From the IMG/VR virus record IMGVR_UViG_3300045988_098325: a DNA stretch of 36,595 nucleotides; one strand, written 5' to 3'. Position numbers and translations under genes: made by a program. The notes below the pieces were generated by a model, which saw only the letters and a list, made by a program, of their open reading frames with translations, did not search any database and was not told the origin of the DNA. Positions 1 through 36,595 of the stretch are shown piece by piece. Origin of the DNA: a virus. Each line of letters opens with the position of its first letter. Positions within the stretch are counted from its first letter, which is position 1.

Positions 1-201
1 GGGTGCGTAAGACCTTACACAGAGTCTTACATGGTCTTACGTTCGGGCACATGCTCTAAACCATTGGAAACATTGGGCTGACAGGCCAAGGCTTACAAAC
101 TTACGTTCCATTATACATATATATGTTTATATATATATATTAGGGATATATATATAGGGGGCGTAAATGTAAGCCTGCCTGTCAGCCAGAAAAGGCAGGA
201 A
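1..201 (+). repeat. Copy A (5'-truncated by the window edge) of the multi-copy ~274-bp intergenic element
   Basis: Base-by-base comparison shows it is identical to 29988..30188 and 36395..36595. It carries GTAAGAC/GTCTTAC heptads (7..13, 24..30, 34..40) and a TA-rich core flanked by GGCTGACAGG/CCTGTCAGCC (76..187). It ends 3 nt before the ATG at 205. Confidence 0.95.
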
Positions 202-1764: not shown

Positions 1765-2193
1765 ATGAAGTGCGTGATCTGCGGCAAGGAGTTTTCCGCG
1801 AACACGAACGCTCGCCGCAAACCAAAGTATTGTTCCGCTGCCTGCAAGCAGAAAGCCTATGAGCTGCGCAAACGGATCGGCGCGAAGCCCGAGGTGAAGC
1901 GCGCGAAGAAGAAGGTGACGGTTCAGGTCTCCAAAAACGTCGACGCTGAATTGGACAAGGACACGTTCGAGCGGATGCGGGACGGTGCGCTCGTGGACAC
2001 ATTGCGGTTTAATCGCGACGTGCTGCAGAAAGCGCTCGGCAATCCAGATACGCCGCCCAGCGCGCTGGCGTCGATCAGCAAGCAGCTGATTGATGTGTGC
2101 AGGCAGATAGAGACCCTGGAAACTGACGATGGCGACGTGCTGGCGTCCAGTGAGGAGCTGACTGATGACGCAATCCTCACCGACATCATCTGA
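1765..2193 (+). CDS. terS: Terminase small subunit (putative)
   Basis: 142 aa, with an N-terminal zinc-ribbon-like CVICG...CSAAC and an acidic C-terminus. It overlaps the start of the large terminase gene. Confidence 0.6.
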   Translation: MKCVICGKEFSANTNARRKPKYCSAACKQKAYELRKRIGAKPEVKRAKKKVTVQVSKNVDAELDKDTFERMRDGALVDTLRFNRDVLQKALGNPDTPPSALASISKQLIDVCRQIETLETDDGDVLASSEELTDDAILTDII

Positions 2194-21429: not shown

Positions 21430-22326
21430 ATGGTCGCCATCAAAAGAGAGATAGTCAACCCAGGGCACGGCCACCTCGCGCCATTCCTGCTCGCCGTGCA
21501 TTCCACGGCGAATCCGGGGGCGACCGCGCGCAATCATCGTGACCTATGGTCACGTGGCTACGACTACGCGGTGCATCTGACCTCCGACTGGACGGAGGCG
21601 ATCCAATGCGTCGAATACGACCGGTTGTGCTGGCAGGTCGGCAACGGCAACTCGACGTGTATCGGCATCGAGATATGCGAGGCCACCAACGCCGCGGATT
21701 TCCAGCGTGGCTTCGAGATCGCGGCGCAGGTGTGCGCGCAGGTGCTCATACAGCGAGGCTGGAATACGAGTGTGATGCACCCGCACCTGTGGTTCTCACA
21801 GACCTACGGCGGCTCAGATCATGTGGACCCATTCCCGTATTTCGCCCGGTTCGGGCGCACATGGGATGACTTCGTGCGACTTACACAGCAATACATCAAT
21901 GGAGGAGGAATCATGGCAATCTCGGATAGTGACGCGCGGAAAATCGCGAAATTCGTATGGGAGTATGGCGTGCACGGCGTGCAGGCCAGCGACCGGTTGA
22001 GGGGCATCGACACGGCCGCGAACAACGTCAACGGCATGTTGACGAAAAACAACGAGTGGAAGTGGCTCACCAACCGCGTCTACCGTCTCGCCGACATGTT
22101 CTTCAACCGCACCGACGCCGCCGGCAGCGGCATGGTGGACGACAACGGCAAGGAAGTCAAACGCAACCTCTACGACCGCATCGTATGGTGCGACAAACGC
22201 CTGCGCGAACTCAACCCGTACAAGACCGGTGAACCCAGGAGCCTGCCGGTGGGTGTCGCGCTCACCAACGAACAGATGGACAAGCTCGCGGCCATCGTCG
22301 TGGCCAAACTCAAGGAGGCAGAATGA
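21430..22326 (+). CDS. Endolysin, N-acetylmuramoyl-L-alanine amidase (Amidase_2/PGRP type)
   Basis: Motifs AVHSTANPGATA..., CWQVGNGNSTCIGIEICE and GGSDHVDP. Confidence 0.85.
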   Translation: MVAIKREIVNPGHGHLAPFLLAVHSTANPGATARNHRDLWSRGYDYAVHLTSDWTEAIQCVEYDRLCWQVGNGNSTCIGIEICEATNAADFQRGFEIAAQVCAQVLIQRGWNTSVMHPHLWFSQTYGGSDHVDPFPYFARFGRTWDDFVRLTQQYINGGGIMAISDSDARKIAKFVWEYGVHGVQASDRLRGIDTAANNVNGMLTKNNEWKWLTNRVYRLADMFFNRTDAAGSGMVDDNGKEVKRNLYDRIVWCDKRLRELNPYKTGEPRSLPVGVALTNEQMDKLAAIVVAKLKEAE

Positions 22327-22652
22327 GCGACAATCTCGATAATCTCAACGACCATCCGGCCTACGACGACAGTGACCAGGCGTTGCCCGACAGCATGCCC
22401 ACCCACGAGCCCGCGCCGAACCCGACTCGCGTATGGGTGCGGGCCGCGCTCATACGCGCGCTGAAAACCATGGCACAGGCGGCCATCGGCGTGCTCGGAA
22501 CCGGCGCAGTAGGACTCATGCAAGCCGACTGGGCAAACGTGCTCTCCGTCGCCCTCATGGGCGGCGTATTGAGCCTGCTCACCAGCATCGCCGGAATCCC
22601 CGAGGTGGACGATGGGTCAAGCCTCGCGAGCATCACAGACAGCGCAAACTAG
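22323..22652 (+). CDS. Holin (r1t/LL-H-like)
   Basis: 109 aa, with hydrophobic segments AAIGVLGTGAVGLM and LSVALMGGVLSLLTSIAG. It overlaps the endolysin stop. Confidence 0.7.
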   Translation: MSDNLDNLNDHPAYDDSDQALPDSMPTHEPAPNPTRVWVRAALIRALKTMAQAAIGVLGTGAVGLMQADWANVLSVALMGGVLSLLTSIAGIPEVDDGSSLASITDSAN

Positions 22653-22694: not shown

Positions 22695-22950
22695 CTGCCT
22701 TTGCTGGCTGACAGGCAGGCTTACATTTACGCCCCCTATATATATATCCCTAATATATATATATAAACATATATATGTATAATGGAACGTAAGTTTGTAA
22801 GCCTTGGCCTGTCAGCCCAATGTTTCCAATGGTTTAGAGCATGTGCCCGAACGTAAGACTATGTAAGACCTGTGTGGGGTGTGTAAGACCTTACACAGAG
22901 TCTTACATGGTCGTACGTGATTGACGTAAGACCTAGAATTCGTGTTCGCC
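22695..22950 (-). repeat. Copy B, the inverted copy of the multi-copy element, with its 30-bp core flipped relative to its flanks
   Basis: The reverse complement matches copies C and D apart from a few substitutions. The exception is 22870..22899, which has the same plus-strand orientation as in C and D. Confidence 0.95.
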
Positions 22951-22963
22951 GCAGCTGCAATGA

Positions 22964-23015
22964 GCCCCGCCCCACTCGCCAACCATGGTGAGCGGAGCGG
23001 GGCGATTTTTGCGTT
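22964..23015 (+). terminator. Rho-independent terminator of the late/lysis operon
   Basis: A 17-bp imperfect stem (22964..22980 pairing with 22987..23003, 2 mismatches), followed by GATTTTTGCGTTT. Confidence 0.7.
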
Positions 23016-23039
23016 TACGGTGGCGCGCCGTGAGACAAT

Positions 23040-23561
23040 ATGCATATGGAAACCATCGAAAGCGCCATAGCAGTCATCCGCAACTCCGGCCGAATCCTGC
23101 TCACCTGGGACGACGAATGGGACTGCTGGCTGCTGCCCAACCAAACCATCCACGAGCCAGACACCCCAGACCACGCGCTGCGCTCGCTCGCCATCGACTA
23201 CCTGCCATGCATGCCGACGCGACTGTACGACATACCGCCCACGCTCATGGTCGACAGCCACAAACCATGCCCGCAGCATGACGACGCGATCCGCCACTAC
23301 GTGTACACGATTGGGTTTTATGACATCTATCCCGACGCCGATTATAGGTACGAGGACGTTTACAACCATCACCTCATCGACATCGACGACTGGCAGGGCG
23401 AATGCGATTTATACGGCATCGACCATTTCATGTTCGACATCGGCATCGAACCAGACAGGCGCACCTGCACATGGTGGACGATCGACGAGATGCGCGCAGA
23501 CCCGCGCATGCGGGCGGTCAACGGCGACCTAATCGACACGCTCGAACTCATCTATGCCTGA
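23040..23561 (+). CDS. Hypothetical protein in a moron-like position. The N-terminus resembles the start of a Nudix fold, but no Nudix box is seen.
   Basis: 173 aa. It begins AIAVIRNSGRILLTWDDEWDCWLLP, and no GX5EX7REUXEEXGU motif was found. Confidence 0.6.
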   Translation: MHMETIESAIAVIRNSGRILLTWDDEWDCWLLPNQTIHEPDTPDHALRSLAIDYLPCMPTRLYDIPPTLMVDSHKPCPQHDDAIRHYVYTIGFYDIYPDADYRYEDVYNHHLIDIDDWQGECDLYGIDHFMFDIGIEPDRRTCTWWTIDEMRADPRMRAVNGDLIDTLELIYA

Positions 23562-23823
23562 CTGCTGCCAGCGCCGAGCATGGCCGGATAGGCGTCACGC
23601 CAGCCTCCTGGTCGGCGCGCCGCTCCACCCACTTATCCACGCGACAGCCGGCATCCATGTGGCGCGCGTGACTGATCTCATGCGCGAGCACACAACGGCG
23701 CTGCACGTCCGTCAGACGCGAATCCAAGACGATCAGATCCAGACCGGGCGCGTAGAAGCCTTCATAGCCGACCGGCAACGGCTGTTCGGCCACACGCGCC
23801 CAGCGTGACGCCTCAATAAGCAA
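23548..23823 (-). CDS. ImmA/IrrE-family metallopeptidase (short form)
   Basis: HEISH (HEXXH) sits in the context RRCVLAHEISHARH. TTG start; last gene of the leftward immunity operon. Confidence 0.7.
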   Translation of the reverse strand: MLIEASRWARVAEQPLPVGYEGFYAPGLDLIVLDSRLTDVQRRCVLAHEISHARHMDAGCRVDKWVERRADQEAGVTPIRPCSALAAVRHR

Positions 23824-23850
23824 CTCGTTCAGAACAACTCCCGGGACGAA

Positions 23851-24570
23851 TCAGTCGTTGAGATGATCGATGGCGTACTGCGCTTCGGATTCAGTGAACT
23901 GGCCACCGTATTCGCTCATCAGCTGGTCCTTGACCGCGGCCTCGCTCATCTCCATCGTGTCCCGGTACGTCTTCGCCTGTTCCAGGGCGTTCTTGTTGTA
24001 ATCGGCCTTCAGGTGATCGATGGCGTACTGTGCGGCCTCCGCAGGGAACTGGCCGCCGTATTCGCTGGTCAGCTGGTCGTAGATGCCCTGCTTGCTCAGG
24101 TGCATCATATCGGAATACGTTTCCGCCTGACTGAGCGCATTGCGATACTCGGCCGGAACGTTGTTGTCTGTGGATTCAGGCTTTTGCTCGGTGGCGTTCT
24201 GCTCGGCCTCCGTGGTCTTCTCATCCGCGGCCTCCTGTTTCTCCTCCTCGGCCTTCTGCTCTTCAGCCTGGTTCTTCTCCGCGGTGCCCGCGGACTGCGA
24301 CGTCGACGACGACGGCTTGGCTTCCGTCACCGACTCCTTCTTGTCATTGGATCCGCCGGCGCTCGCCGCGATGGCGATGACGACAACGACGATGATCACC
24401 CAGAACCACCACTTTTTCCAGATCGGCTTCTTCCCGTCGCCCTTCGGCGGGGTGGCGGGCGTCGGCTGAGGCATCGGCGGCTGCATTTGCTGCTGCACCG
24501 GAGCCCCAGCAGGCTGGAACTGCTGCGCGGCATTTCCCTGCGACGATGGCATGGTATTCGGATCACTCAT
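23851..24570 (-). CDS. Membrane-anchored protein with two Ltp-like repeats (putative superinfection exclusion)
   Basis: The ATG at 24570 follows GAAGAGGAA. The TM segment is WWFWVIIVVVVIAIAASAGG. The duplicated motif is NAL.QA.TY.D.M..S......QL.SEYGGQF...EAQYAIDHL. Confidence 0.7.
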   Translation of the reverse strand: MSDPNTMPSSQGNAAQQFQPAGAPVQQQMQPPMPQPTPATPPKGDGKKPIWKKWWFWVIIVVVVIAIAASAGGSNDKKESVTEAKPSSSTSQSAGTAEKNQAEEQKAEEEKQEAADEKTTEAEQNATEQKPESTDNNVPAEYRNALSQAETYSDMMHLSKQGIYDQLTSEYGGQFPAEAAQYAIDHLKADYNKNALEQAKTYRDTMEMSEAAVKDQLMSEYGGQFTESEAQYAIDHLND

Positions 24571-24683
24571 GATGATTCCTCTTCTCTTTGGTTCAGTGAC
24601 GCCCCTAACAACCTGCGCCTTGACTTTCCCGGCACCCTTATGAATGCCGGGCCGGCACCGCAACAATACGGCGCCAAAACTTC

Positions 24684-25074
24684 TTACGGCAGATCCTCGT
24701 ATTCGGTCTGCTCACGCTCGATATCACCCTTCTTCGCGGCAATGTCGAATTGATCCATGTGCGACGCGACATACGCAGCCTGCTCATCCGCAGACCACCC
24801 AGAAATGGACTGCGCCATATCGCTGTCGATAAAATGGCCGGCAGCGTCGACGTTGACCTGTGTCTGCCGCATCGCGTTGACGAGTGCGAACACGTCGTTG
24901 CAGCACAGGATTGGGGCGAGTCTGTCGAGCTCGTCGATGGTCCACGGCTTCAGCCCCCTTGATATGTAGTGAGGCGTAGGACTGGGCGCGCCCGATGATC
25001 CTGCCGGCCTCTTCCTGTGCCACACTCTTCGCCTCGGGCGCTTGTCGCACGGAGGGCCGGTTGCTTTGTCGCAT
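24684..25074 (-). pseudogene. XRE/ImmR-like repressor with its reading frame broken at a homopolymer (plus-strand C5 at 24954..24958)
   Basis: ORF 24784..25074 encodes the first HTH helices (SVAQEEAGRIIGRAQSYASLHIKG). ORF 24684..25025 encodes the continuation (LKPWTIDELDRLAPIL...). Removing one G would fuse them into a single protein of about 129 aa. Confidence 0.7.
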
Positions 25075-25109
25075 GCCCCGTGTCGGGGGGTTCCTCCTTT
25101 CTAACCATG

Positions 25110-25222
25110 AGCTAAGTATAGCACATTTAAGCTGTCTTACAGGTATTTCGACACGCCGTGTAGCTCATATGAGTTGACATACCTTAACGGTTGTGCTTTA
25201 CTGTAATCAGCTCAAACGAGCT
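25110..25222. promoter_or_regulatory. Divergent immunity-switch region: rightward promoter plus AGCTC-N4-GAGCT operator-like palindromes
   Basis: The promoter is TTGACA (25174..25179), a 17-nt spacer, then TTTACT (25197..25202). The operators are AGCTCAAACGAGCT (25209..25222), AGCTCATATGAGTT (25162..25175) and the weaker AGCTAAGTATAGCA (25110..25123). Confidence 0.55.
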
Positions 25223-25236
25223 AGAAAGGAGGGCGA

Positions 25237-25515
25237 ATGAGCAACACCACTGCGATAACCCGAGCAATAGAAGCGGAACTCGCCGCCGCCCATGTCACCA
25301 AGAACCAACTCGCCGACCAGCTTGGCATAGCGAGAAGCAACCTGCTGAGACGATTCAACGGCGAGGTCCCTTGGAATATCAACGAGGTGGAAATCGCCGC
25401 AAACTGCACCGGACTCTCACTCTGGGAACTCATGAGTCGAGCAGAAATGAGAGCAAACACCCCCAAAAAAGCAAAAGAAAAGGCACCCGCCGACACGGAT
25501 GCCCAGTCCAAATGA
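25237..25515 (+). CDS. Cro-like HTH regulator
   Basis: 92 aa with the HTH TKNQLADQLGIARSNLLRRFNG, divergent from the repressor. The RBS is AAAGGAGGG. Confidence 0.7.
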   Translation: MSNTTAITRAIEAELAAAHVTKNQLADQLGIARSNLLRRFNGEVPWNINEVEIAANCTGLSLWELMSRAEMRANTPKKAKEKAPADTDAQSK

Positions 25516-25527
25516 AAGGAATCCCAA

Positions 25528-26313
25528 ATGGACACCAATCAGATTACACGGTTCGACTTCCACGGCGCAAACGTGCGCGTGCTCACCGACGAGCATAACG
25601 AAACGTGGTTCATCGCCAAGGACATTTGTGACGTCCTCGGCATCGACACGAATCACGCCCGCGAAGGGCTTGATGATGACGAAATCACAAACCTCCGTAA
25701 TACGGAGGTTTGGAACCGACCGGGGCGCGCGCCACTGATCGTGAGCGAGGCTGGTTTCTACAAGCTCGTGCTCCGCTCACGCAAGCCAGTCGCCAAGGAA
25801 TTCCAGCGCTGGGTCACCCACGAGGTGCTGCCGAGCATCCGCAAACACGGCGGATACATGGCAGGACAGGAGGCCATGAGCCCCGAGCAGATGCTTGCCG
25901 CGAGCATGCGTTGGCTCGAAAGCCGCATCGCCGAACAACAGGGGCAGATCGACGCGCAGCAGGCCCAGCTTGACGCGCAGGCACCCAAGGTGCTGTTCGC
26001 GGACGCGGTGAGCACCTCGAAACGCTGCATCCTCGTCGGCGAACTCGCGAAGATCCTACGTCAGAACGGCGTCGACATGGGCGAGAAACGGCTCTTCGCG
26101 TGGCTGAGGGAACATGGCTATCTCATGCAGCGCAACGGCGTGCGTAACTTCCCGACGCAACGCTCCATGGACTTGGGGCTTTTCCAAGTCAAGGAAACCC
26201 CGATCGTGCATTCGGACGGGCACACGACGCTCAGCGTCACGACCAAGGTCACGCCGAAAGGACAACAGTATTTAATTCAGAAGTTCCTCGGGCACAAGGA
26301 GCAAACCAAATGA
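25528..26313 (+). CDS. Antirepressor (Bro-N plus KilAC/ANT C-terminal domain)
   Basis: Motifs FDFHGANVRVLTDEHNETWFIAKDICDVLG, EFQRWVTHEVLPSIRKHGGYM, and a C-terminal LFADAV...GELAKIL... Confidence 0.85.
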   Translation: MDTNQITRFDFHGANVRVLTDEHNETWFIAKDICDVLGIDTNHAREGLDDDEITNLRNTEVWNRPGRAPLIVSEAGFYKLVLRSRKPVAKEFQRWVTHEVLPSIRKHGGYMAGQEAMSPEQMLAASMRWLESRIAEQQGQIDAQQAQLDAQAPKVLFADAVSTSKRCILVGELAKILRQNGVDMGEKRLFAWLREHGYLMQRNGVRNFPTQRSMDLGLFQVKETPIVHSDGHTTLSVTTKVTPKGQQYLIQKFLGHKEQTK

Positions 26314-26537: not shown

Positions 26538-26752
26538 CCGACACCACCACCGACCTCGACGTACTCATCAAACTGTTTGACACCAACCTGCGGATCCTCA
26601 AGGGAATCGACATCGACTCCGACAGGTACATGGCCGGGCGCATCGAGGAACTCGAATCAACCATCCGCACACTCGAATCACTGCGCAACATCGCATCCAT
26701 GTCAAACCGGATCGACGACGAGCTGGAGAGGCACCCATGCAAGGCGGAATGA
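26534..26752 (+). CDS. Hypothetical protein
   Basis: The ATG at 26534 lies inside ORF 26393..26752 and gives 72 aa. Confidence 0.5.
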   Translation: MTDTTTDLDVLIKLFDTNLRILKGIDIDSDRYMAGRIEELESTIRTLESLRNIASMSNRIDDELERHPCKAE

Positions 26753-27045
26753 TCGGACTGTGGACGCCACTGCCAGACACGCACCTCGACCAGGCTCGAG
26801 GACTGCACACGCACCAAACACATCAGGAGACACTCGTGAAACACACCATCATCCGCCACACGTGGACACTGTGCGGGATCCTCTCGCTCATGCTGTTCGG
26901 CATCGACATGGCCGTCCTATACGAGCACGGCGGCAGCATCAGCCCATGGCTCACGATCCTGCTCCTCATCGCAGGGCCGATCCTCCTCTGCGCCGGCACC
27001 ACCATGCTCGGCAAAGGGGAACGCGACACAGAGGAGACACTGTGA
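26737..27045 (+). CDS. Hypothetical membrane protein
   Basis: 102 aa with hydrophobic segments WTLCGILSLMLFGIDMAVL and WLTILLLIAGPILLCAG. Confidence 0.55.
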   Translation: MQGGMIGLWTPLPDTHLDQARGLHTHQTHQETLVKHTIIRHTWTLCGILSLMLFGIDMAVLYEHGGSISPWLTILLLIAGPILLCAGTTMLGKGERDTEETL

Positions 27046-27056
27046 GGGAGCCGATC

Positions 27057-27494
27057 ATGCTCACCATCGACGGCACCCCAATCGCCAAGGGCCGGCCCAG
27101 AGTCTACCGAGGACACGGGGTCACCCCCGAGCGGACCCGCCAGGCCGAACAGGCAATCCGCGACACGTTCAACAGGGAATACCCCGGTTTCCAACCATTC
27201 GAGGGGCGACTCGTCATGACATGCCGATTCTGGATGCCCCGCAACGGCCGCCCGGATTTGGACAATCTCGTCAAACTCGTCACCGACGCGCTCAACGGCC
27301 TCGCCTACAGGGACGACGAGCAAATCGACACAGTCGCCGCCTACCGGCACCTCCCAGACCGTAAGGTACGCGGATGCAACGGGCGCATGCGATGGCGACA
27401 CACAGGCGACCCACTCACCCACCACGGGGAGGAATACACGCCACACACCGCAATCCGCATAGAGGAAATCACCACAGAAAGGAACCCACAATGA
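27057..27494 (+). CDS. rusA: RusA-family Holliday junction resolvase
   Basis: Motifs KGRPRV and PDLDNLVKLVTDALNGLAYRDDEQI. The alternative GTG start at 27042 is possible. Confidence 0.8.
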   Translation: MLTIDGTPIAKGRPRVYRGHGVTPERTRQAEQAIRDTFNREYPGFQPFEGRLVMTCRFWMPRNGRPDLDNLVKLVTDALNGLAYRDDEQIDTVAAYRHLPDRKVRGCNGRMRWRHTGDPLTHHGEEYTPHTAIRIEEITTERNPQ

Positions 27495-28070: not shown

Positions 28071-28246
28071 CGTACAGCGGATACACGCCAGGCCGCCCAG
28101 GACACCTCGACATGAGCGAGCCGCACGAATACTGCGCCGTCTGCGGCACCGGACTCTCCAACCAGGACGTCCACGACGGACGCGACACCTGCCAATGGTG
28201 CCGCCTCGACCCACCAAAGGAGCAGGACGATGAGCAATCCCAATGA
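28067..28246 (+). CDS. Hypothetical small zinc-ribbon protein (59 aa)
   Basis: Found by manual reading. The motif is CAVCG...CQWC, with an ATGA overlap upstream. Confidence 0.45.
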   Translation: MTYSGYTPGRPGHLDMSEPHEYCAVCGTGLSNQDVHDGRDTCQWCRLDPPKEQDDEQSQ

Positions 28247-29213
28247 CGTACTCGCCGTGCTCAACGCGCAACAGGCAGCGCACACGCCACACATTCCCGA
28301 CACCATGCCAATGGCTGGCGAATGGATGCCGACAACCCCAGCGCCCAGCGTATGGCCGACGATCCGCGAACACATCGTGGACATGGTCACCCACCAGCCG
28401 CGCAGCCTACAGCGCGAAATCGGCCCAAGCGAACTCGGCACACAATGTTTGCACTGCCTCGCCAGAAAACTCACCGGGCACACGACAGAGGAGATTCGCG
28501 ACGTCGCATGGCTGCCATTCATCGGCACCAGCGTCCACGCGCAATTCGAACACATGTTCGGCGCATTGGACGGGTATGAGACCGAGAAAACCGTGCTCGT
28601 CGGCAACCTCACCGACGCGCGCCCCATCACCGGCAGCATCGACCTGTGGGACGAAAAAAACGCGGCGACCTGCGATTGGAAAATCGTCGGAAACAGCACC
28701 CTGGCCGATGTGCGCCGCCACGGCCCCAGCCAACAATACAAAATCCAGGCGTCGCTCTACGGCATCGGCATGAGCCACACCACACCCGTACAAACATCCT
28801 GCATCTACTACCTGCCACGCAACCAGCCCAGCCTGGACGCCGGATGGATCTACGAAACCCCATTCGACCCACGCCCCGGCCAATGGGCACTCGCCAGGGC
28901 ACGCCTCATCCTCACCCTATACGACAGCATCCGCGTCGAATACGGGGACAGCATCGCGGAACAGTGGGTGAACGCGTTCCCCCGCAACACCGAACACTGC
29001 TTCCACTGCCGGGACGAAGCGCAACGCAGAAACCACGCCGACCTCGCCAGCCTGATCGGCACCAAAACCGTGGACGCGGCGGACACGCGGACATTGGCCG
29101 ACAACCTGCCAGCCATGCCACGCGCACTCCTCAACGTCCCACAGGCCGACTACCGGCCACAACCAACCAATAAACCAACCACTGACACAAACCCGAAAGG
29201 ACAACAGTCATGA
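28230..29213 (+). CDS. PD-(D/E)XK nuclease, Cas4/RecB-like exonuclease
   Basis: Motifs IDLWD...CDWK (D...D-x-K) and QQYKIQASLY (QxxxY), with Cys pairs CLHC and CFHC. Confidence 0.75.
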   Translation: MSNPNDVLAVLNAQQAAHTPHIPDTMPMAGEWMPTTPAPSVWPTIREHIVDMVTHQPRSLQREIGPSELGTQCLHCLARKLTGHTTEEIRDVAWLPFIGTSVHAQFEHMFGALDGYETEKTVLVGNLTDARPITGSIDLWDEKNAATCDWKIVGNSTLADVRRHGPSQQYKIQASLYGIGMSHTTPVQTSCIYYLPRNQPSLDAGWIYETPFDPRPGQWALARARLILTLYDSIRVEYGDSIAEQWVNAFPRNTEHCFHCRDEAQRRNHADLASLIGTKTVDAADTRTLADNLPAMPRALLNVPQADYRPQPTNKPTTDTNPKGQQS

Positions 29214-29947
29214 CATGGAACAACCAGTACACACCACAATTCCAGCAGCCACAATACGGGCAGCAGCCACAGCAAGGCTACGCGCCACAGGAGGAGCCAA
29301 CCGCTCCGGCACCCAGCTTCGGCCAGCTCCTCAAAAGCGGAGGCGGCAAAGCCGCGTTCAACAAGGACAGCATGCCCGGCACCACCGTGACCGGCACCGT
29401 CGTGGACATCAAAACCCGGCAGAAAAAAGAGTACGGGACCGGCAAACCCATGTTCTCACAAAAGGGCAATCCGAAATACGAGGCGCTCATCACCGTGCAA
29501 ACCAGCCTGCAGGAGGCGCCCGACGATGACGGACGCCGCACCATCTACATCAACATGTGGGGCGTGCAGCAGGACGCCATCCGCAAAGCCTGCGAAGCAG
29601 CCAAATGCGAAGGCCCCGTGGAGGGTGACACGTTCACCGCGACCTACGTGGGCTTGGGGCAGGCGCAGCCCGGCATGAGCGCGCCGAAACTCTACGAGTA
29701 CCGCATCGACCACAAGCCGCCCGTGTCGTTCACACAGTCCGAAAACGCTCCGCAGCCCACGCCCCGGCAGTCTGCCGGACAGCCGGCACCGCATGTGGAC
29801 GCCATGCAGGTCACCGGCCTGCGCAACATGGGCAAGAGCGATCAGGAGATCTCGCAACTGCTCGGCGTCCCGTCGGACGCGGTCACCCGCATCGCCGGGC
29901 AGGCACGAGTGCAGGGCAGCGAGATGAACGGCGAACCCGAATTCTAG
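29210..29947 (+). CDS. Putative ssDNA-binding-like protein (Q/P-rich N-terminus, OB-like core, HTH-like segment, C-terminal ...NGEPEF)
   Basis: 245 aa. The C-terminal acidic-aromatic tip recalls SSB/gp2.5 tails. The functional call is tentative. The last ~33 nt belong to repeat copy C. Confidence 0.4.
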   Translation: MTWNNQYTPQFQQPQYGQQPQQGYAPQEEPTAPAPSFGQLLKSGGGKAAFNKDSMPGTTVTGTVVDIKTRQKKEYGTGKPMFSQKGNPKYEALITVQTSLQEAPDDDGRRTIYINMWGVQQDAIRKACEAAKCEGPVEGDTFTATYVGLGQAQPGMSAPKLYEYRIDHKPPVSFTQSENAPQPTPRQSAGQPAPHVDAMQVTGLRNMGKSDQEISQLLGVPSDAVTRIAGQARVQGSEMNGEPEF

Positions 29948-30188
29948 GTCTTACGTCAATCACGTACGACCATGTAAGACCTGTGTGGGGTGCGTAAGAC
30001 CTTACACAGAGTCTTACATGGTCTTACGTTCGGGCACATGCTCTAAACCATTGGAAACATTGGGCTGACAGGCCAAGGCTTACAAACTTACGTTCCATTA
30101 TACATATATATGTTTATATATATATATTAGGGATATATATATAGGGGGCGTAAATGTAAGCCTGCCTGTCAGCCAGAAAAGGCAGGAA
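29915..30188 (+). repeat. Copy C, a full-length copy of the multi-copy element
   Basis: 274 bp, with 3 mismatches to copy D. It starts inside the 3' end of 29210..29947 and ends 3 nt before the ATG at 30192. Confidence 0.95.
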
Positions 30189-30191
30189 ACG

Positions 30192-32537
30192 ATGAACTTC
30201 TCCAACTACCACCCCATACCAGTGCAGGGGGTGCCCGCCGCATACGAAGGGATATTCAACCAGCTTGAGCTCACCTTCCAACCGGCGAACGACTCCACAG
30301 TCGTGAACACGCTCCTTGGCCGCCCACTCGCACTGGTCACTGCCCGCCACAGCAAGAACGGGCCGGAGGCACCCGTCATCGCCATCGGATACCAGAAAGC
30401 CATCTGGGAGCTGCGCGAGGGGCATCTGCGCTGGTGCCAGCCGGAACAGCGCCTCTACCGCAGGGACGAGGACGCTGAGGACCATCCGGGGGACCGGTAC
30501 CTGCTCAACAGCTGGCATCCGGTGAAAAGCATCGACGACGAGTACGGCGTCGAATCAAAGAACCAGCAGTCACCCGCATACGTTGCGACGATCCTGCGTG
30601 AGGCGAAACGACTCGAATGGTTCGCGCAGGTCGAACGTGGCATCCGCATCGACCCGTGCGTGTGGGTGCGTCGCGACGGGCACGTCGTCAAGCTCGTCGG
30701 CGAGGAAACGGAGGATCTCGCCGTCACTCAGACGTTCGACCCTGCCGGCATGGGCCGTGAGGCCATCCGTGACGCGGAACGCATCTGCCGGTGGCTGACC
30801 GTGGACGAGAAATCCTACCGGAATCTCGTGCGCATGTTCGCCACTCCCTGGCTGGAACCGTTCAAACAGCTCACCTACGTGCTGTCCGGGCATGGCGGCG
30901 ACGGCAAGTCGCTGGTCATGTCGCAGTGTGTGCTCGGCGTGCTGGGGGTCGGCAAGGTGTTTCCCGCGTTCAACGCGCAGAATTTCTGCGAGACCGGCTC
31001 GTACACCATCAACCGGGAGAGCATGCTGGATGCGATGGACGGCATGGCGTTCGCCTATGACGACGAGGCGGGTGACGTGACGGAGCACATGCTCCCCTCG
31101 TTGCGCGCCATATCCACCGGCACTCAGATGCAGGCGCGTGTCATCGGCGGCAAGTATCGGACGGTCACGCCTTCCGCGACGGTCGTCCTGTGCACGAATC
31201 AGGGGTTCGCCGACAGTACGGAGTCCTCCGACCGGCGCAGGTTCGTGAAGGTCGAGTTCCATGCGAGCACCGGCCGAAGCTATGACGAGTATCACGCGAT
31301 CGAACTGTTCGTGCACAACCATCCTGCTGCATTGTTCGCGCTCTCGTGCGAACTGTGGGAGCAGGGTGATGTGCCGGATCTGGTGAATCTGTCGCCTGCC
31401 CGTCAGATCAGTGACGAGATGTATTGGCTGATCCATGAGATCTGTGTGAACGATGAGCAGTACGGTCAGCCGGTTGCGTCGCGTACCGCGTACCGTGATG
31501 AGTTCCATCGTGCGGTCAGTGATGATGCCATGCAGTTGATGGGGTTGAAGAACTCCACGAGCTGTGTACTTCGTGGCGGTCAGCAGCGTGTGGTGCGTGT
31601 CGCTGATTGGGATCGGTTCGACAAGTATCGGAACGCGGTTATGGAGGCGGACGCTGAGGGCGTGGTGGAGGTGCCATCCCCGCCTTCCCCGATCGACGGG
31701 CCTATTGTCCTGCCGTCCGAGGTTGGGTTCGCCGCGGAGTATGTGCGTGCCGACCAGCGCAAGGTCGCCCGTGATTGGAAGCAGTTGGCTCAGTCGCCGA
31801 ATGTGGATACGAGCCGGCGTCCGACGGATAGTGCCGCGTATGCGGTCGTACCGCATGAAGGGTTTGTGGTCGTGGACATGGACGTGCCGCATGACGGCGG
31901 GGACACGGGGTGGACGGTGTGGAACCGGCAGGTCGGCCTGTATGGGACGCCCGCGTTCCCCACCACGTATCTGGTGGGCACGCCGTCGGGTGGCGTGCAC
32001 GCGTATTACCGTGTGCCGGCGGCAGTCGCCGGACAGCTCAAGAACGCCGCGCACCCGAAGGGCATGCCGGTCGACCTGCGTGTGGACGGCAAGGGCTACG
32101 TGATCGGCGCCGGCTCCCATGTGACCGCCGGCGACTACCGGCTGCTCGACATGCCTGCCGGTGACGTGGTGCCTGAACTGTCGGAGCGCATGTGCCGGTG
32201 GCTGATCGATACACCCGGCTATGTGGAGTCGCATACGCCGATGCTCCCCACCGTGTCCGATGACGGTGCGCCGCGCACGTCCATTGCCAGTCTGATCGCC
32301 ACCACTCCGGGAGCGGGGGATTCGAGCAGGCCGCCGGTGGATATGAGTCCGATACCGGAGGGTTCACGCAACACCGACCTGCACGCATGGGCATACGGGC
32401 GAGCAGCGAACCACCCAGACAATTGGCCGTCCATCAGACTCGACCTGTTCGAACGCGGACGGATCAGCGGCCTGCCCGAATCGGAGTGCGCGACGATCTG
32501 GAACAGCATCATGCGTGAGCTTGGAGGTGCACGATGA
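30192..32537 (+). CDS. Replication protein: D5/P4-type P-loop helicase domain followed by a Prim-Pol (archaeo-eukaryotic primase) domain and PriCT-1
   Basis: Walker A is SGHGGDGKS and Walker B-like is AFAYDDEAGD. Prim-Pol motifs are VVVDMDV, PSGGVHAYY and DLRVDGKGYVIGAGS. PriCT-like is SRNTDLHAWAYG... Confidence 0.8.
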   Translation: MNFSNYHPIPVQGVPAAYEGIFNQLELTFQPANDSTVVNTLLGRPLALVTARHSKNGPEAPVIAIGYQKAIWELREGHLRWCQPEQRLYRRDEDAEDHPGDRYLLNSWHPVKSIDDEYGVESKNQQSPAYVATILREAKRLEWFAQVERGIRIDPCVWVRRDGHVVKLVGEETEDLAVTQTFDPAGMGREAIRDAERICRWLTVDEKSYRNLVRMFATPWLEPFKQLTYVLSGHGGDGKSLVMSQCVLGVLGVGKVFPAFNAQNFCETGSYTINRESMLDAMDGMAFAYDDEAGDVTEHMLPSLRAISTGTQMQARVIGGKYRTVTPSATVVLCTNQGFADSTESSDRRRFVKVEFHASTGRSYDEYHAIELFVHNHPAALFALSCELWEQGDVPDLVNLSPARQISDEMYWLIHEICVNDEQYGQPVASRTAYRDEFHRAVSDDAMQLMGLKNSTSCVLRGGQQRVVRVADWDRFDKYRNAVMEADAEGVVEVPSPPSPIDGPIVLPSEVGFAAEYVRADQRKVARDWKQLAQSPNVDTSRRPTDSAAYAVVPHEGFVVVDMDVPHDGGDTGWTVWNRQVGLYGTPAFPTTYLVGTPSGGVHAYYRVPAAVAGQLKNAAHPKGMPVDLRVDGKGYVIGAGSHVTAGDYRLLDMPAGDVVPELSERMCRWLIDTPGYVESHTPMLPTVSDDGAPRTSIASLIATTPGAGDSSRPPVDMSPIPEGSRNTDLHAWAYGRAANHPDNWPSIRLDLFERGRISGLPESECATIWNSIMRELGGAR

Positions 32538-33330: not shown

Positions 33331-33608
33331 GACGCACCATAACCTGCCTGCATTGCGGGCAGACACGAGCACACAGGGCATTCGGCCTATGCTCCATCTG
33401 CTACATGCGTGACCTGCGCAAACGCCAGGGGAGCGTCAAACATGAATGCGCGAACTGCCATCGCATGATGCACCTGTGGGCGGCAGGCATATGCCGCACA
33501 TGCTACCAGCACCGCAAAGACACCGACTACACACCACCCCAGCTCGACATCAACTTGGACGACTACCGCGACTACATCAACCAATGCCGGAAAGGACACA
33601 GCAAATGA
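33327..33608 (+). CDS. Hypothetical protein with a duplicated zinc-finger motif
   Basis: CLHCG...GLCSICY and CANCH...GICRTCY. Confidence 0.55.
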   Translation: MRRTITCLHCGQTRAHRAFGLCSICYMRDLRKRQGSVKHECANCHRMMHLWAAGICRTCYQHRKDTDYTPPQLDINLDDYRDYINQCRKGHSK

Positions 33609-34168
33609 GCAGCACATTATTCCAGACCTGCGGCGCATTCAACGACATCGACATCATCCGCCGCTCATACATGATCGAACCGTTCAATCCCGGACAGGTG
33701 CAGCCGGTCAGCTACGACGTGCTGCTGGGTGACTCATACAAGCGGCTACGGTCAACGAAACCACGCAACATCACGCGACCATCGGAAAGCGAATGGGAAT
33801 CCTACGAGCACGTGCAGGAGATACGCATACGCGCGCATGAGTTCCTGCTCGCCAGCACGCTGGAAACCGTGCATATCCACACGCGGGTCGTCGCACGGTT
33901 GGAAGGGAAAAGCACGATAGCCCGGCAAGGACTCATCGTGCATGCCGCCGGGCTCATCGACCCAGGATTCCACGGGCAAATCACGCTCGAACTGCACAAC
34001 GAAACCAACACCGAACTGGTACTGCCAGTGGGCACGCGAATCGGACAGCTCACCTTCCAGTGGGTGGCGAAACCCGCACGCCTATACGGAGACAAGGCAC
34101 TCAACTCGCATTACCAGTGCCAGAGCGGGGCGACCGCACCACAAGGAGGCACCCATGTGGAATCCTGA
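33605..34168 (+). CDS. dcd: dCTP deaminase / dUTPase-superfamily enzyme
   Basis: LEGKSTIARQGLIVHAAGLIDPGFHGQITLELHN. Confidence 0.8.
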   Translation: MSSTLFQTCGAFNDIDIIRRSYMIEPFNPGQVQPVSYDVLLGDSYKRLRSTKPRNITRPSESEWESYEHVQEIRIRAHEFLLASTLETVHIHTRVVARLEGKSTIARQGLIVHAAGLIDPGFHGQITLELHNETNTELVLPVGTRIGQLTFQWVAKPARLYGDKALNSHYQCQSGATAPQGGTHVES

Positions 34169-34747: not shown

Positions 34748-35854
34748 ATGAAATACGTCAGCATGTTCTCTGGCATCGAAGCGGCAACCGTCGCATGGAA
34801 ACAACTCGACTGGCAACCGGTCGCATTCTCGGAAATCGAACCATTCCCATGCGCAGTGCTCAAACACCATTACCCAACCGTCCCCAACCTGGGAGACATG
34901 ACGAAAGTAGATTGGAATGACTACCATCACACAGCCGACATTGTGGTCGGAGGAAGCCCCTGCCAAAGCTTCAGCACCGAAGGACTCAGGAAGGCGTTGG
35001 ACGATCCACGCGGCCAGCTCATGCCAGCATATTTCCGAGCTTGCCAGCAAATTGACCCAGAATGGATCGTCTGGGAAAACGTGCCCGGAGTATTATCCGC
35101 AGATCACGGACGCGCTTTCGGCACACTCCTGCAAATCGTGGCCGAACTCTGGCCTGATGGGGGGGCAGCATGGAGAGTGCTCGACGCTCAATTCCACGGA
35201 GTGGCACAACGCCGCCGCCGTGTGTTCGTTGTCATCAACACTAGAGACTGGCGACGTGCCGCACCGGTACTATTTGAGCGAGAAAGCCTGTGCTGGGATC
35301 ATCCGACGAGCAAAGCAAAAAGGCAAGCCCTTACCGGAAGTGTTGTCGGCGGCGTTGCAGGCGCAGATACAGGCATGGGAGCAGGAAACTGCCTAAACCA
35401 TTTTGACGGTCAGTTGAGCAGGCGCTACTCGGCAGATGGGCCATACCCGACGTTTGCTGGTGGGACGGGAGCAACCGGCGGCAGGAACATAGGCGTGCTC
35501 ACTGATGTGGTACAACTGGTTCGCACCTCGAACACGAATTCCAATGGAGGGCATTTCCCTCAATCGGATGTAATGGACACGTTAGATACGACGGTTTCAA
35601 CTGCGGTGCTGTGCAATGCCGGTGATTCAGCGAACGCCGAAGTCGGCTACGAAGTGCGACGGCTCACCCCACGGGAATGCGAACGGCTCCAGGGCTTCCC
35701 GGACGATTACACGAATGTCGCATTCAACGGGAAACCAGCCTCGGACGCGAACCGTTACCGCGCACTCGGCAACAGCATGGCAGTCCCCGTCATGCGATGG
35801 ATAGGCGAAGGCATCAACCTCGTGGAACAAGCGAAACAGGAAGGAACACTATGA
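34748..35854 (+). CDS. DNA (cytosine-5)-methyltransferase, with no adjacent restriction endonuclease
   Basis: Motifs FSGIE (I), GSPCQSFS (IV), ENV (VI), QRRRRVF (VIII), RRLTPRECERLQGFPDDYT (IX) and GNSMAVPV (X). Confidence 0.9.
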   Translation: MKYVSMFSGIEAATVAWKQLDWQPVAFSEIEPFPCAVLKHHYPTVPNLGDMTKVDWNDYHHTADIVVGGSPCQSFSTEGLRKALDDPRGQLMPAYFRACQQIDPEWIVWENVPGVLSADHGRAFGTLLQIVAELWPDGGAAWRVLDAQFHGVAQRRRRVFVVINTRDWRRAAPVLFERESLCWDHPTSKAKRQALTGSVVGGVAGADTGMGAGNCLNHFDGQLSRRYSADGPYPTFAGGTGATGGRNIGVLTDVVQLVRTSNTNSNGGHFPQSDVMDTLDTTVSTAVLCNAGDSANAEVGYEVRRLTPRECERLQGFPDDYTNVAFNGKPASDANRYRALGNSMAVPVMRWIGEGINLVEQAKQEGTL

Positions 35855-36036
35855 CCGACACGATCAGCGCATACAGGCGCAGCATGATATTGAAATGGCA
35901 TGCGGACGGCTACCGGGTGGACGAGATCGCCCGCCTCATCGATCTCCCGCAACAGGCCGTCATCGACATCATCGACAACGCTGCCCGGCCTGAGGAGCAC
36001 AAGCCGGACATGGGAGAGGACGTGCCATTATGGTGA
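35851..36036 (+). CDS. Small HTH protein (sigma-70 region 4 / LuxR-like)
   Basis: 61 aa: MILKWHADGYRVDEIARLIDLPQQAVIDII. Confidence 0.55.
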   Translation: MTDTISAYRRSMILKWHADGYRVDEIARLIDLPQQAVIDIIDNAARPEEHKPDMGEDVPLW

Positions 36037-36308
36037 ACCACTTTGACTGGCAGAAGCAGGCCGCCTGCGCGAACCCGGACTACGATCCGGAATGGTGGTT
36101 CGCACCCAAGGACTCGCCCGAGGCCACGGCGGCTCAAGCCATCTGCATGTACGACTGTCCCGTATACGAGCAATGCGAACAATACACGCGCGCCGTCGAC
36201 CTGCGGACACCAGGCGGAATCACCGGCATCTGGGCAGGCTGCACCTACCGGGAGCAATGGCGTTCCGCCGGGAAGCAGGAATCAAAACATCAACACGACA
36301 AGGATTGA
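36030..36308 (+). CDS. whiB: WhiB-family transcription factor
   Basis: Four Cys (C13, C40, C43, C49) and a GIWAG turn. Confidence 0.85.
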   Translation: MVNHFDWQKQAACANPDYDPEWWFAPKDSPEATAAQAICMYDCPVYEQCEQYTRAVDLRTPGGITGIWAGCTYREQWRSAGKQESKHQHDKD

Positions 36309-36321
36309 ACAAGTTTTGAAA

Positions 36322-36595
36322 GGCAGCGAGATGAACGGCGAACACGAATTCTAGGTCTTACGTCAATCACGTACGACCATGTAAGACATGTGTTGGGTGC
36401 GTAAGACCTTACACAGAGTCTTACATGGTCTTACGTTCGGGCACATGCTCTAAACCATTGGAAACATTGGGCTGACAGGCCAAGGCTTACAAACTTACGT
36501 TCCATTATACATATATATGTTTATATATATATATTAGGGATATATATATAGGGGGCGTAAATGTAAGCCTGCCTGTCAGCCAGAAAAGGCAGGAA
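36322..36595 (+). repeat. Copy D, a full-length copy of the multi-copy element. Its last 201 nt are identical to window positions 1..201.
   Basis: 274 bp. It begins with a non-coding fossil of the SSB-like gene's 3' end (36322..36354) and runs to the window end. Confidence 0.95.

Follow-up and report, generated by a model that had tools for sequence, protein, structure and literature searches.

A non-coding cassette beside a helicase-PrimPol gene, triplicated in a Bifidobacterium phage sublineage, is a candidate replication origin

Results

The window analysed here is the whole 36,595-nt stretch of IMG/VR virus record IMGVR_UViG_3300045988_098325. Its closest relatives are consistent with the Bifidobacterium host and the siphovirus-type phage that an earlier, sequence-only reading had guessed, and the Bifidobacterium pseudolongum group is a suggested host. 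Genes for an exonuclease and a 245-aa protein lead into a non-coding cassette of ~260 bp, which is followed by a gene for a helicase-PrimPol (Table 1). Each copy of the cassette contains two long imperfect palindromes (HP1 and HP2) and then a ribosome-binding site. HP2 carries two words per side, in opposite orientations, around an AT-rich centre; specifically, GGCTTAC-AAA-CTTAC lies at the left and GTAA-AT-GTAAGCC at the right of a 58-nt core. HP1 adds five to six more, phased at 10 bp. Across the genome there are 21 GTCTTAC words, compared with 1.5 expected by chance, and 18 of the 21 fall inside the cassette copies.

Table 1. Coordinates of the cassette copies, their parts and neighbouring genes in the 36,595-nt window
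Feature	Coordinates	Strand	Remarks
Copy A	1..201	+	Physically one with the final 201 nt of D; overlap of the two ends after linearisation
Copy B	22695..22951	-	Inverted; sits between holin stop codon and late terminator
Copy B, HP1	22851-22918		
Copy B, HP2	22706-22817		
Copy B, flipped segment	22870-22899		
Terminator-like hairpin	22965..23010	+	Intrinsic type, with T5 run; closes late operon
RusA gene	26577-27494		
Exonuclease gene	28230..29213	+	phrog_1674
245-aa gene	29210..29947	+	phrog_1911; conserved C-terminal HTH-like segment, acidic ...EPEF tail
Copy C, ancestral cassette	29910/29915..30188	+	Common core of all copies 29929-30185; orthologous cassettes 5' of PrimPol in all relatives
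HP1 of copy C	29962..30029		68-nt imperfect palindrome; GTCTTAC/GTAAGAC words, 10-bp phasing, ~28-bp stem
Flip-flop segment	29981..30010		HP1 loop plus inner stem; C and D are in state 1
Spacer	30030..30062		Tandem ~10-nt motif (AAACCATTGG AAACATTGG); best-conserved part, kept across word types
HP2 of copy C	30063..30174		112-nt imperfect palindrome; outer arms GGCTGACAGGC / GCCTGCCTGTCAGCC
AT-rich core	30088..30145		Putative DNA-unwinding element; at least 85% A+T, vs 60% G+C for the genome
Cassette 3' end	30177..30188	+	Ribosome-binding site (AAAAGGCAGGAA); 3 nt before PrimPol ATG
Helicase-PrimPol gene	30192..32537	+	781 aa, proposed initiator; Prim-Pol domain aa 525-658, D5-type P-loop region aa 231-349
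PrimPol codons aa 1-100	30192..30491	+	Second co-varying segment
PrimPol codons aa 408-488	31413..31655	+	Predicted winged helix; co-varies with cassette word type
Copy D	36317/36322..36595	+	5' part of D/A copy; ~313-nt insertion at WhiB / 231-aa gene junction

The sequence-only reading counted four copies. There are three, in a circular or permuted genome of ~36,394 bp, and A and D are one copy split by linearisation, because A is identical to the final 201 nt of D, the independent assemblies L039 and L040 read continuously from D into the A flank, and five 36.35–36.38-kb contigs of the same strain have their break points elsewhere. The window begins directly after the last mismatch between C and D and ends at the point where A and C diverge. 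Other details of that reading agree with our alignments. Specifically, A, C (29988–30188) and D (36395–36595) share 201 nt without any base difference, C and D have 3 mismatches over 274 positions (29937, 29981 and 29987), and an ATGAAC start codon begins 3 nt past the end of both A and C. Copy B was described as an inverted copy with about one difference in its long arm. Its near-identity and inversion are evident, but there are two mismatches to C in the 175-nt arm, with another in the 52-nt arm, and the inversion is not a simple one, as the central 30 nt of B (equivalent to 29981–30010) are flipped relative to the remaining element.

The same HP1 segment is reverse-complemented in other strains, and either orientation occurs between strains. 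Loop states are identical in four same-strain assemblies and differ only between strains. Exchange between the palindrome arms would occasionally invert the loop. A site-specific invertase or shufflon switch was considered and rejected, the genome having no invertase or integrase and the loop state being stable within a strain. Assemblies from several samples agree in both the three-copy layout and the loop states; the layout is not an assembly artefact.

Every relative examined, down to 54% and 29% protein identity, has a cassette of the same layout directly upstream of its helicase-PrimPol gene, with lineage-specific words (GGCTTAC, GGTAACG, GGT[CA]ACG, TGGCAC and TGTAGGA). Comparison with these relatives shows that C is the only ancestral copy of the three and that D and B are lineage-specific insertions, since the relatives carry empty-site alleles. 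Specifically, in relatives without D, WhiB overlaps the 231-aa gene with zero intergenic space, and at the B site the terminator lies directly 3' of holin. Thus, the proposal that the element marks every module boundary holds in the carrier sublineage only, and not generally. The carrier lineage is without an integrase gene, and the relatives are integrated prophages. The initial ~35 nt of copy C are the final codons of the upstream 245-aa gene (...NGEPEF and stop). This 3' end was copied together with the cassette, and copy D retains a relic mini-ORF (MNGEHEF and stop).

Among GenBank phages, neither the element nor 25 kb of the genome had a match at the DNA level. In IMG/VR, the exact HP2 21-mer and the GGTAAC2-type pattern gave no match, and relatives of the 231-aa protein were not found. 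The 17-mer CTTACATGGTCTTACGT is absent from the Bifidobacterium genomes among 185,579 species representatives, with chance matches in unrelated taxa only. Look-ups of holin variants for GGTAAC2-type genomes returned other phages, integrase-bearing or integrated.

Substitutions are distributed unevenly over the cassette, affecting 4 of 59 positions in the words, 1 of 35 in the spacer and 12 of 50 in the AT core. Each of the three copies keeps its words and spacer conserved, with drift at other positions, and the AT core tolerates substitutions with its AT-rich composition kept. In relatives, the HP2 arms show paired changes, and folding with shuffled controls gives z-scores of −6.6 to −10 in the closer word types, so that the palindromes are kept as the sequence changes. 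GC skew, which is dominated by coding content, was uninformative as an origin locator.

Copies within a genome are 97.8–99.6% identical, a value that short-read repeat collapse could inflate in part, compared with 89–91% between genomes and 92–99% for coding flanks. The greater similarity of paralogues than of orthologues indicates gene conversion among the copies, in line with the ongoing conversion that had been suspected. The phage exonuclease and RusA could homogenise the copies or process stalled forks; an annealing protein or SSB is not recognisable in the phage genome. The suggestion that the repeats are a recombination substrate for rearranging modules finds no counterpart in the data, with inverted or deleted isomers in 0 of ~10 related assemblies.

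The proposed initiator is recognisable as a primase-polymerase by its Prim-Pol domain match (E = 2.3e-13). Its helicase region has a DUF5906 match below the Pfam cut-off and weak PHROG helicase matches; the core of this region is poorly modelled, and its best structural neighbour is the helicase region of NrS-1, at a weak E of 0.06. The full-length AlphaFold model was too poor for a fold search. The segment from aa 393 to aa 500, in contrast, is modelled as H-b-H-H-b-b-H with pLDDT of 78 (83–92 in the core), and its top-50 PDB neighbours are all winged-helix DNA binders, although the matches are weak (best E = 0.02, TM 0.3–0.5). A PDB sequence search with PrimPol gave no match, and a plasmid collection gave matches only to the PrimPol core, from Streptomyces plasmids.

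A region-wise identity matrix shows that two segments of PrimPol, aa 1–100 and aa 401–500, follow the word type of the adjacent cassette strictly, with identities of at least 94% among proteins of one word type and of 44–75% between types. The remainder of the protein has a different history, without strict clustering by word type. For example, aa 501–781 are 96–99% identical between the window type and the GGTAAC2 type, and L001 and L002 are 94% identical over aa 501–781 but 57% over aa 401–500. For aa 1–100, physical linkage to the cassette may be all that lies behind the covariation. The exception to the match between initiator and words is an orphan copy D in L042, L057 and L058, which have an intact window-type D but a PrimPol and adjacent cassette of the GGTAAC2 type. 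In these genomes D cannot match the resident initiator, and may be non-functional or serve something else. Covariation analysis of exclusive columns in L042 alone did not single out L002 (13 columns in common with L002, 12 with the L001 group).

Discussion

An iteron-type origin was one of three roles offered by the sequence-only reading, and the comparative evidence favours it, because the position of the cassette is conserved in all relatives, the words and two PrimPol segments change together, and the AT core is accompanied by inverted words. We hold, with somewhat more belief than doubt, that the cassette is a putative replication origin composed of iterons and an AT unwinding core, which the helicase-PrimPol would bind and which has been triplicated in a sublineage. 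Specifically, the 7-nt GTCTTAC words would serve as iterons, and the inverted word pairs of HP2 would flank the core to be melted. The helicase-PrimPol, encoded immediately 3' of the cassette, would recognise the words, probably through the winged-helix segment at aa ~408–488. Illegitimate, microhomology-type recombination probably copied the cassette twice in the sublineage, together with the last codons of the upstream gene. Copy D/A would have been inserted at the start codon of the first packaging/late-block gene, and copy B, in inverted orientation, between the holin gene and the late terminator. Gene conversion, plausibly via the exonuclease and RusA genes, would then keep the three copies near-identical.

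What the additional copies do is a more tentative matter. By analogy with the proposal for SPP1 oriR, it is possible, although we lean against it, that replication starts at them too, as secondary origins, or that with initiator bound they block forks and thereby turn replication over to concatemer synthesis. We give little credence to a broader scenario, in which the lineage dropped integration (the integrase/attP region is gone) and gained two initiator-matched origins, one of them inverted at the old attP side. The three origins would then form a joint replication programme, by multi-origin firing, concatemer-triggering fork barriers or plasmid-like carriage, and extrusion of HP1 as a cruciform in vivo would leave the loop flip-flop behind.

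A shared promoter/leader cassette, also among the roles first offered, is an unlikely alternative to the origin. The AT core would be the promoter, the words operators (possibly for PrimPol autoregulation) and the 3' end the ribosome-binding site, and the duplications would have given the late genes and an antisense unit the same promoter. The part of this proposal that fits is the presence of ribosome-binding sites in C and D/A, both of which end 3 nt before start codons. There are also −10-like hexamers in the AT core, a TATACA-18-TATATT match in each copy, and, kept across word types, a TATA(T)AGG block that precedes the ATG by ~45 nt. However, a promoter scan found 5 sites against 6.0 expected from shuffled controls, the cassette matching at 9 of 12 positions, and the recognisable promoter of this genome is a canonical TTGACA-N17-TTTACT at 25174–25202, unlike the cassette. 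At the D site a promoter is unneeded, as the overlap of WhiB and the 231-aa gene in relatives without D leaves no intergenic space, and in B it would oppose gene flow, firing, if at all, antisense into the 3' end of holin, where no gene follows. The AT core is moreover the most substitution-tolerant part of the cassette, and the words co-vary with a helicase-primase rather than with a typical regulator. In iteron replicons the origin and the initiator promoter often overlap, and a promoter role could coexist with the origin. A reading in which only C is functional, D and B being neutral or selfish by-products of illegitimate recombination that stay similar through homology-driven gene conversion, we consider improbable. 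Direct 260-bp repeats around an essential replication module should be unstable in a recombination-proficient phage, yet window-type genomes from many samples all retain the layout intact, and the words and spacer are maintained in every copy, with no decayed or partial copy seen. Nevertheless, D and B are recent, their sites being empty in close relatives, ATGAAC microhomology brackets D, the wrong-word-type D persists in L042, L057 and L058, and the phage recombination genes could homogenise any repeats.

Both strands of the element fold, which bears on whether its hairpins act in polycistronic mRNA, as RNase III-type processing or stability signals or as a translational leader. The plus strand folds at −116.6 kcal/mol (z = −10.8) and folds better than its complement in 9 of 11 cassettes, and C and D/A lie within a long rightward transcription unit. 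The complement folds almost equally well, however (z = −8.6), the two strands have similar G-U counts and the minus strand is favoured in two word types, as for a DNA palindrome, and the inverted B would present the other strand. A search of Rfam 15 gave no family match, only sub-threshold miRNA-model matches on the AT palindrome (27.7 bits, gathering score 76). An RNA-level role, which would leave the 7-nt words, the AT core and the covariation with a DNA-replication protein unexplained, is thus very unlikely. We regard as scarcely credible that the element is a MITE-like or host-derived mobile element, a cos/pac packaging site or an assembly artefact. Spread in both orientations within the genome and hairpin-rich ends would suit a mobile element, but terminal inverted repeats and target-site duplications are lacking, the genome encodes neither a transposase nor a site-specific recombinase, the orthologues of C throughout the family are single-copy cassettes, and the Bifidobacterium and GenBank phage searches described above argue against a host-derived or mobile source. 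Many contigs of relatives break inside the element, and D/A lies ~1.5 kb upstream of the HNH-TerS-TerL genes. However, contigs in several assemblies read through all copies, which shows the breaks to be repeat-induced and not physical ends, and a packaging site should occur only once, close to the HNH/TerS genes. The contig ends of L014 and L015, near 1681 and 1796, do not coincide and so give no sign of a cos site. A telomere/protelomerase site was rejected, as there is no such gene and the contigs are circularly permuted.

The origins of Bifidobacterium phages are essentially unmapped, and we found no description in the literature searched. The cassette offers a candidate origin in an entire family of Bifidobacterium (pro)phages, with what appears to be a modular specificity code of word plus predicted winged helix in at least five variants. 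Matched pairs of origin and initiator with different specificities would be useful for bifidobacterial replicons and phage engineering, where tools are scarce. The triplication is a natural experiment, in which a small phage tolerates and homogenises long repeats around essential modules, and it bears on what accompanies the loss of integration.

The kind of element is already known, and its triplication is the unusual variant. One of the two closest likenesses is to the Rep/ori systems of staphylococcal pathogenicity islands (SaPIs), including the SaPI5 Pri-Rep fusion, in which short opposed iterons also lie on both sides of an AT-rich centre (PMC9371898). SaPI iteron specificity is set by a winged-helix domain and differs between related elements (PMC9371898). 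The SaPI origin adjoins the initiator gene, as the phage cassette adjoins the gene of the proposed initiator. In SaPIs this initiator, a self-loading helicase, is joined to a primase by linkage or fusion, and a combination of helicase and primase is predicted for the phage protein. Unlike the SaPI origin, which is downstream of the gene, the phage cassette is upstream, and the phage protein has the domain order helicase, predicted winged helix, PrimPol. The phage cassette also has an additional word palindrome, HP1, its AT-rich part is itself a 112-nt palindrome, it is triplicated, and sequence homology to SaPI proteins is not detectable.

The alpha protein of satellite phage P4 is a primase-helicase with a DNA-binding domain that recognises the same short repeats at ori and crr, two separated cis sites that replication jointly requires. 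In P4 these are arrays of direct repeats and lack a long AT-centred palindrome, sequence and domain order differ, and the extra copies of the bifidophage may be dispensable. Herpes simplex virus has two copies of oriS and an oriL, which are palindromic, with an AT-rich centre and inverted boxes for a helicase-type origin-binding protein. These origins are likewise present in several copies per genome, some of them inverted, but the virus is eukaryotic, its proteins are unrelated, and the copies lie inside genome-scale inverted repeats. In cluster A mycobacteriophages, stoperators are single 13–14-bp sites scattered through many intergenic regions. Like the words, they repeat a short asymmetric motif, one that evolves together with a DNA-binding protein of the phage, whereas the bifidophage words are confined to three 260-bp cassettes; dispersed operators of the stoperator type were rejected, as 3 GTCTTAC words lie outside the cassettes compared with 1.5 expected.

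The other of the two closest known systems is Bacillus phage SPP1, which has more than one origin copy per genome. This ~40-kb siphovirus has two similarly organised origins, oriL and oriR, each with repeats and an AT-rich unwinding element and kilobases apart (PMC6316719, PMC3485210). In both phages one copy is beside or within the initiator gene, which in the bifidophage is a proposed one, and another in the late region, and both encode an exonuclease and a Holliday-junction resolvase, here the phrog_1674 exonuclease and RusA. For SPP1 it is proposed that these enzymes act on forks that stall at the second origin, so that replication goes over to concatemers (PMC6316719, PMC3485210). SPP1, however, divides the work among an origin-binding protein (gp38), a loader and a DnaB-type helicase, and its two origins are not near-identical 260-bp copies, neither being reported as inverted or in concerted evolution; the bifidophage has three copies, and binding to them is predicted only. 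The triplication thereby bears on whether secondary origin copies control the mode of replication, as in the SPP1 oriR model.

Repeat copies and genome organisation

The window is a Bifidobacterium siphovirus-type genome. Its nearest cultured phage is PMBT6 (54% TerL identity), and the sources of its holin relatives name B. pseudolongum and B. choerinum. The repeat search confirmed the coordinates proposed by a sequence-only reading. Specifically, copies C and D form a 279-nt direct repeat of 98% identity, the window start carries a 201-210-nt direct copy (A), and the inverted copy B was detected as two arms of 175 and 52 nt. Exact comparison likewise bore out the identity of 1-201, 29988-30188 and 36395-36595, and the three mismatches between C and D (29937, 29981 and 29987). 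Between B and C the mismatches are at 30020, 30177 and 29937; in addition, the central 30-nt segment of the palindrome HP1 is inverted in B (reverse complement) with respect to the surrounding element. The genome contains 21 occurrences of the 7-nt word GTCTTAC, versus 1.5 expected from shuffles, and 18 of the 21 fall inside the copies.

Features of the window
Feature	Coordinates	Strand
231-aa protein (phrog_908)	205-900	
HNH endonuclease	1286-1609	
TerS	1765-2193	
TerL	2165-3625	
Portal, structural and tail genes	3625 to about 21400	
Amidase	21430-22326	
Holin	22323-22652	
Copy B (inverted)	22695-22951	
Terminator	22965-23010	
Ltp-type superinfection-exclusion lipoprotein	23851-24666	minus
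Canonical promoter TTGACA-N17-TTTACT	25174-25202	
Cro/CI-like repressor	25237-25515	
Ant	25528-26313	
RusA	26577-27494	
Exonuclease	28230-29213	
245-aa protein (phrog_1911)	29210-29947	
Copy C	29910-30188	
Helicase-PrimPol	30192-32537	
dCTP deaminase	33446-34168	
C5 DNA methylase	34748-35854	
WhiB	36030-36308	
Copy D/A	36317-36595	
Spacer of the copies	43-75, 30030-30062, 36437-36469	
Spacer of the copies	22818-22850	minus

The same reading counted four copies; there are three. Two independent metagenome contigs, L040 (37.3 kb, 95-97% identical) and L039 (99%), continue from D into the sequence downstream of A. Five contigs, 36,348-36,378 nt long and obtained from separate samples, carry an identical holin and break elsewhere. 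A and D are therefore one copy, in a circular or circularly permuted genome of ~36,394 bp. The window boundaries would fit an assembly graph broken at the repeat, since the final C/D mismatch immediately precedes the first base and the last base coincides with the point of divergence between A and C. Because B and C recur with identical details in the independent assemblies, the three-copy layout is not an assembly artefact.

The window genome yielded neither an integrase nor any other site-specific recombinase. Region 22952-25236 lacks the integrase and attP present there in the related loci L061, L069 and L073; after copy B it holds the terminator, 173-aa and 84-aa ORFs without assigned function, and the lipoprotein gene. 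The phage retains Cro/CI-like and Ant genes and so may derive from a temperate ancestor while itself not integrating. An isolated GTCTTAC (25134-25140) within the putative immunity switch region, 34 nt before the Cro-like gene's promoter, is compatible with chance (three words outside the cassettes versus 1.5 expected).

The HNH endonuclease gene adjoins TerS and TerL (1286-2193), an arrangement typical of cos-type packaging; a cos site was not located, and relatives whose contigs end in this region do so at different positions (window-equivalent 1681 and 1796). Encoded 3' of the exonuclease, the 245-aa protein combines a Q-rich N-terminus with a C-terminal segment that is conserved and HTH-like and an acidic ...EPEF tail resembling SSB C-terminal tips; it is a candidate for the annealing or ssDNA-binding partner that is otherwise missing. 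In-frame tandem repeats in the genes of the 1268-aa tail protein (region 17166-18065; 30-nt period, 7-9 units, with a 21-nt family at 17166-17353) and the tape measure (33-nt multiples, 13122-13831) are ordinary coding repeats. The C5 methyltransferase gene varies in close relatives: a Hint-type intein interrupts it in L057 (4872-7025) and L058 (717-722 aa in the two), it is absent in L039 (window 34751-35841 deleted), and it is truncated in L055. Two close relatives, L006 (7214-8646) and L007 (641-2067), have ~1.4 kb of additional sequence where lysin and holin meet, which the window lacks (~22319).

Anatomy and concerted evolution of the copies

Each copy contains four parts: HP1, a 68-nt imperfect palindrome with GTCTTAC/GTAAGAC words in 10-bp phasing; a 33-nt spacer; HP2, a 112-nt imperfect palindrome whose outer arms and two words per side, in opposite orientation, surround a 58-nt core of at least 85% A+T in a genome of 60% G+C; and a ribosome-binding site. 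Folding is far above shuffled controls on either strand (z = -10.8 and -8.6).

Among 11 full-length copies, 4 of 59 positions vary in the words, 1 of 35 in the spacer, 12 of 50 in the AT core, 17 of 83 elsewhere in the cassette and 16 of 30 in the HP1 loop, with marginal p-values of 0.04-0.07. The tandem ~10-nt spacer motif AAACCATTGG AAACATTGG is the most conserved part and is independent of word type, with counterparts GAAAACAGTTGAAAACATTGA in L069 and GAAAACGTTGAAATAC in L001. A conserved factor may bind there, for instance a host protein or the 245-aa protein through its invariant C-terminal HTH.

Loop excluded, paralogous copies within the window and L040 are 97.8-99.6% identical, versus 89-91% for orthologous copies between the two genomes, whose 1-kb coding flanks are 92-99% identical; this supports the gene conversion suggested earlier. 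Since both genomes share position-specific junctions, the triplication is older than their divergence, with homogenisation of the copies afterwards. At every copy position, strains 92-97% identical show the HP1 loop in either orientation, suggesting that the palindrome arms occasionally exchange sequence or that inverted copies convert one another. A rapid switch is unlikely, as four assemblies of the window's own strain have the same loop state and no invertase is encoded.

Ancestry of the copies

Comparison with relatives indicates that copy C is ancestral and that D and B arose by insertion. The opening ~35 nt of the repeat correspond to the final codons of the 245-aa gene (...NGEPEF*), kept in D as a relic mini-ORF (MNGEHEF*) and in B as a shorter relic, and a cassette occupies the C position in every relative having the helicase-PrimPol. 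That the element marks every module boundary, as had been claimed, holds only for this sublineage. At the D site of L055, L056, L059, L069 and L070, WhiB overlaps the start of the 231-aa gene, with the native junction ...CATATGAACAGC (GTGAAC in L055); at the B site, the late terminator lies within ~50 nt of the holin in L075, versus ~328 nt in the window. The ~313-nt D insertion is bracketed by ATGAAC...ATGAAC, suggesting microhomology-mediated copying of the C segment. L061, L069 and L075 are integrated prophages, the first two carrying an integrase; the ancestor was therefore a temperate phage with a single cassette. The window sublineage has three cassettes and no integrase.

Word type and helicase-PrimPol

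Upstream of the helicase-PrimPol gene the layout is kept and the word changes: GTCTTAC in the window lineage, G[GT]CTTAC in L001, L003 and L059, GGTAACG in L002, GGT[CA]ACG in L055, L057, L042 and L069, TGGCAC in the 54% identity group (L044, L046, L048) and TGTAGGA in the cultured phage BP742P1 (29% identity). The two-hairpin fold is retained, with z = -6.6 to -10 in closer types, weakening to -3 to -4 in those most distant. In BP742P1 (OP172705.1), a 1.5-kb non-coding region (3441-4970) upstream of the PrimPol homologue contains a TGTAGGA-word palindrome and a local 174-nt duplication (3518-3691 and 3826-3999); the 'complete' record of its relative BP677P3 begins within that palindrome.

In the region-wise identity matrix, word type tracks two segments of the 781-aa protein, aa 1-100 and 401-500: their identity reaches at least 94% within a type, against 44-75% between types. 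The remainder has a different history. The window and the GGTAAC2 type share ~90% over aa 101-400 and 96-99% over aa 501-781; L001 and L002 share 94% over aa 501-781 and 57% over aa 401-500; L059 equals L001 across aa 1-500 and is 79% identical thereafter. An earlier, narrower covariation test on L042 alone did not discriminate. The full-length model is of poor quality. The model of aa 393-500 is confident (core pLDDT 83-92, topology H-b-H-H-b-b-H); its top-50 PDB neighbours are all winged-helix DNA binders, among them PadR/MarR-type regulators and the replication terminator protein of B. subtilis, with weak statistics (best E = 0.02, TM 0.3-0.5).

Function of the element

The anatomy matches an iteron-plus-unwinding-element origin served by the adjoining helicase-primase. 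Anatomy and the SaPI and SPP1 parallels lead us to read the element as a putative origin cassette, triplicated. Its additional copies may initiate replication, serve as fork barriers or be passengers. The iteron-type origin proposed earlier gains from anatomy and position, but not from D in L042, L057 and L058: these carry an intact window-type D (96.7% identical to the window's in L057), unmatched because their own PrimPol segments and adjoining cassette are of the GGTAAC2 type, which speaks against this reading.

A shared promoter/leader, also proposed earlier, suits the two copies that place a ribosome-binding site immediately in front of a start codon. Against it, the promoter scan gave no excess over chance, the D site of relatives does not need a promoter, and B is oriented against gene flow. 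An RNA-level role of the hairpins is not required, as both strands fold with similar G-U pair counts and the minus strand is favoured in two word types. A MITE or host-derived element and a packaging site are contradicted.

Comparison with known origins

The element had no match in GenBank phages, no dispersed copies were found in cultured Bifidobacterium phages (PMBT6 has none, BP742P1 only its local duplication), and literature searches returned no account of replication origins or repeats of this type for Bifidobacterium phages. The best documented parallel is the SaPI origin, where the Rep helicase uses its winged-helix domain to recognise 5-6-nt iterons adjoining the rep gene; these lie in opposite orientation on both sides of an AT-rich centre, as in the window cassette, and in SaPI5 primase and Rep are fused (PMC9371898). 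SPP1 is a siphovirus with multiple origins of similar organisation: oriL and oriR, ~13 kb apart, both bind gp38, and forks that stall at oriR are proposed to switch replication to concatemers by means of an exonuclease, an annealing protein, an SSB and a Holliday-junction resolvase (PMC6316719; PMC3485210). The window phage encodes an exonuclease and RusA. An iteron origin with a matched initiator is a known kind of element; new here are a putative origin-type cassette with a modular specificity code for this phage family and, in a lineage without integrase, its triplication with concerted evolution and its flip-flop HP1 loop.
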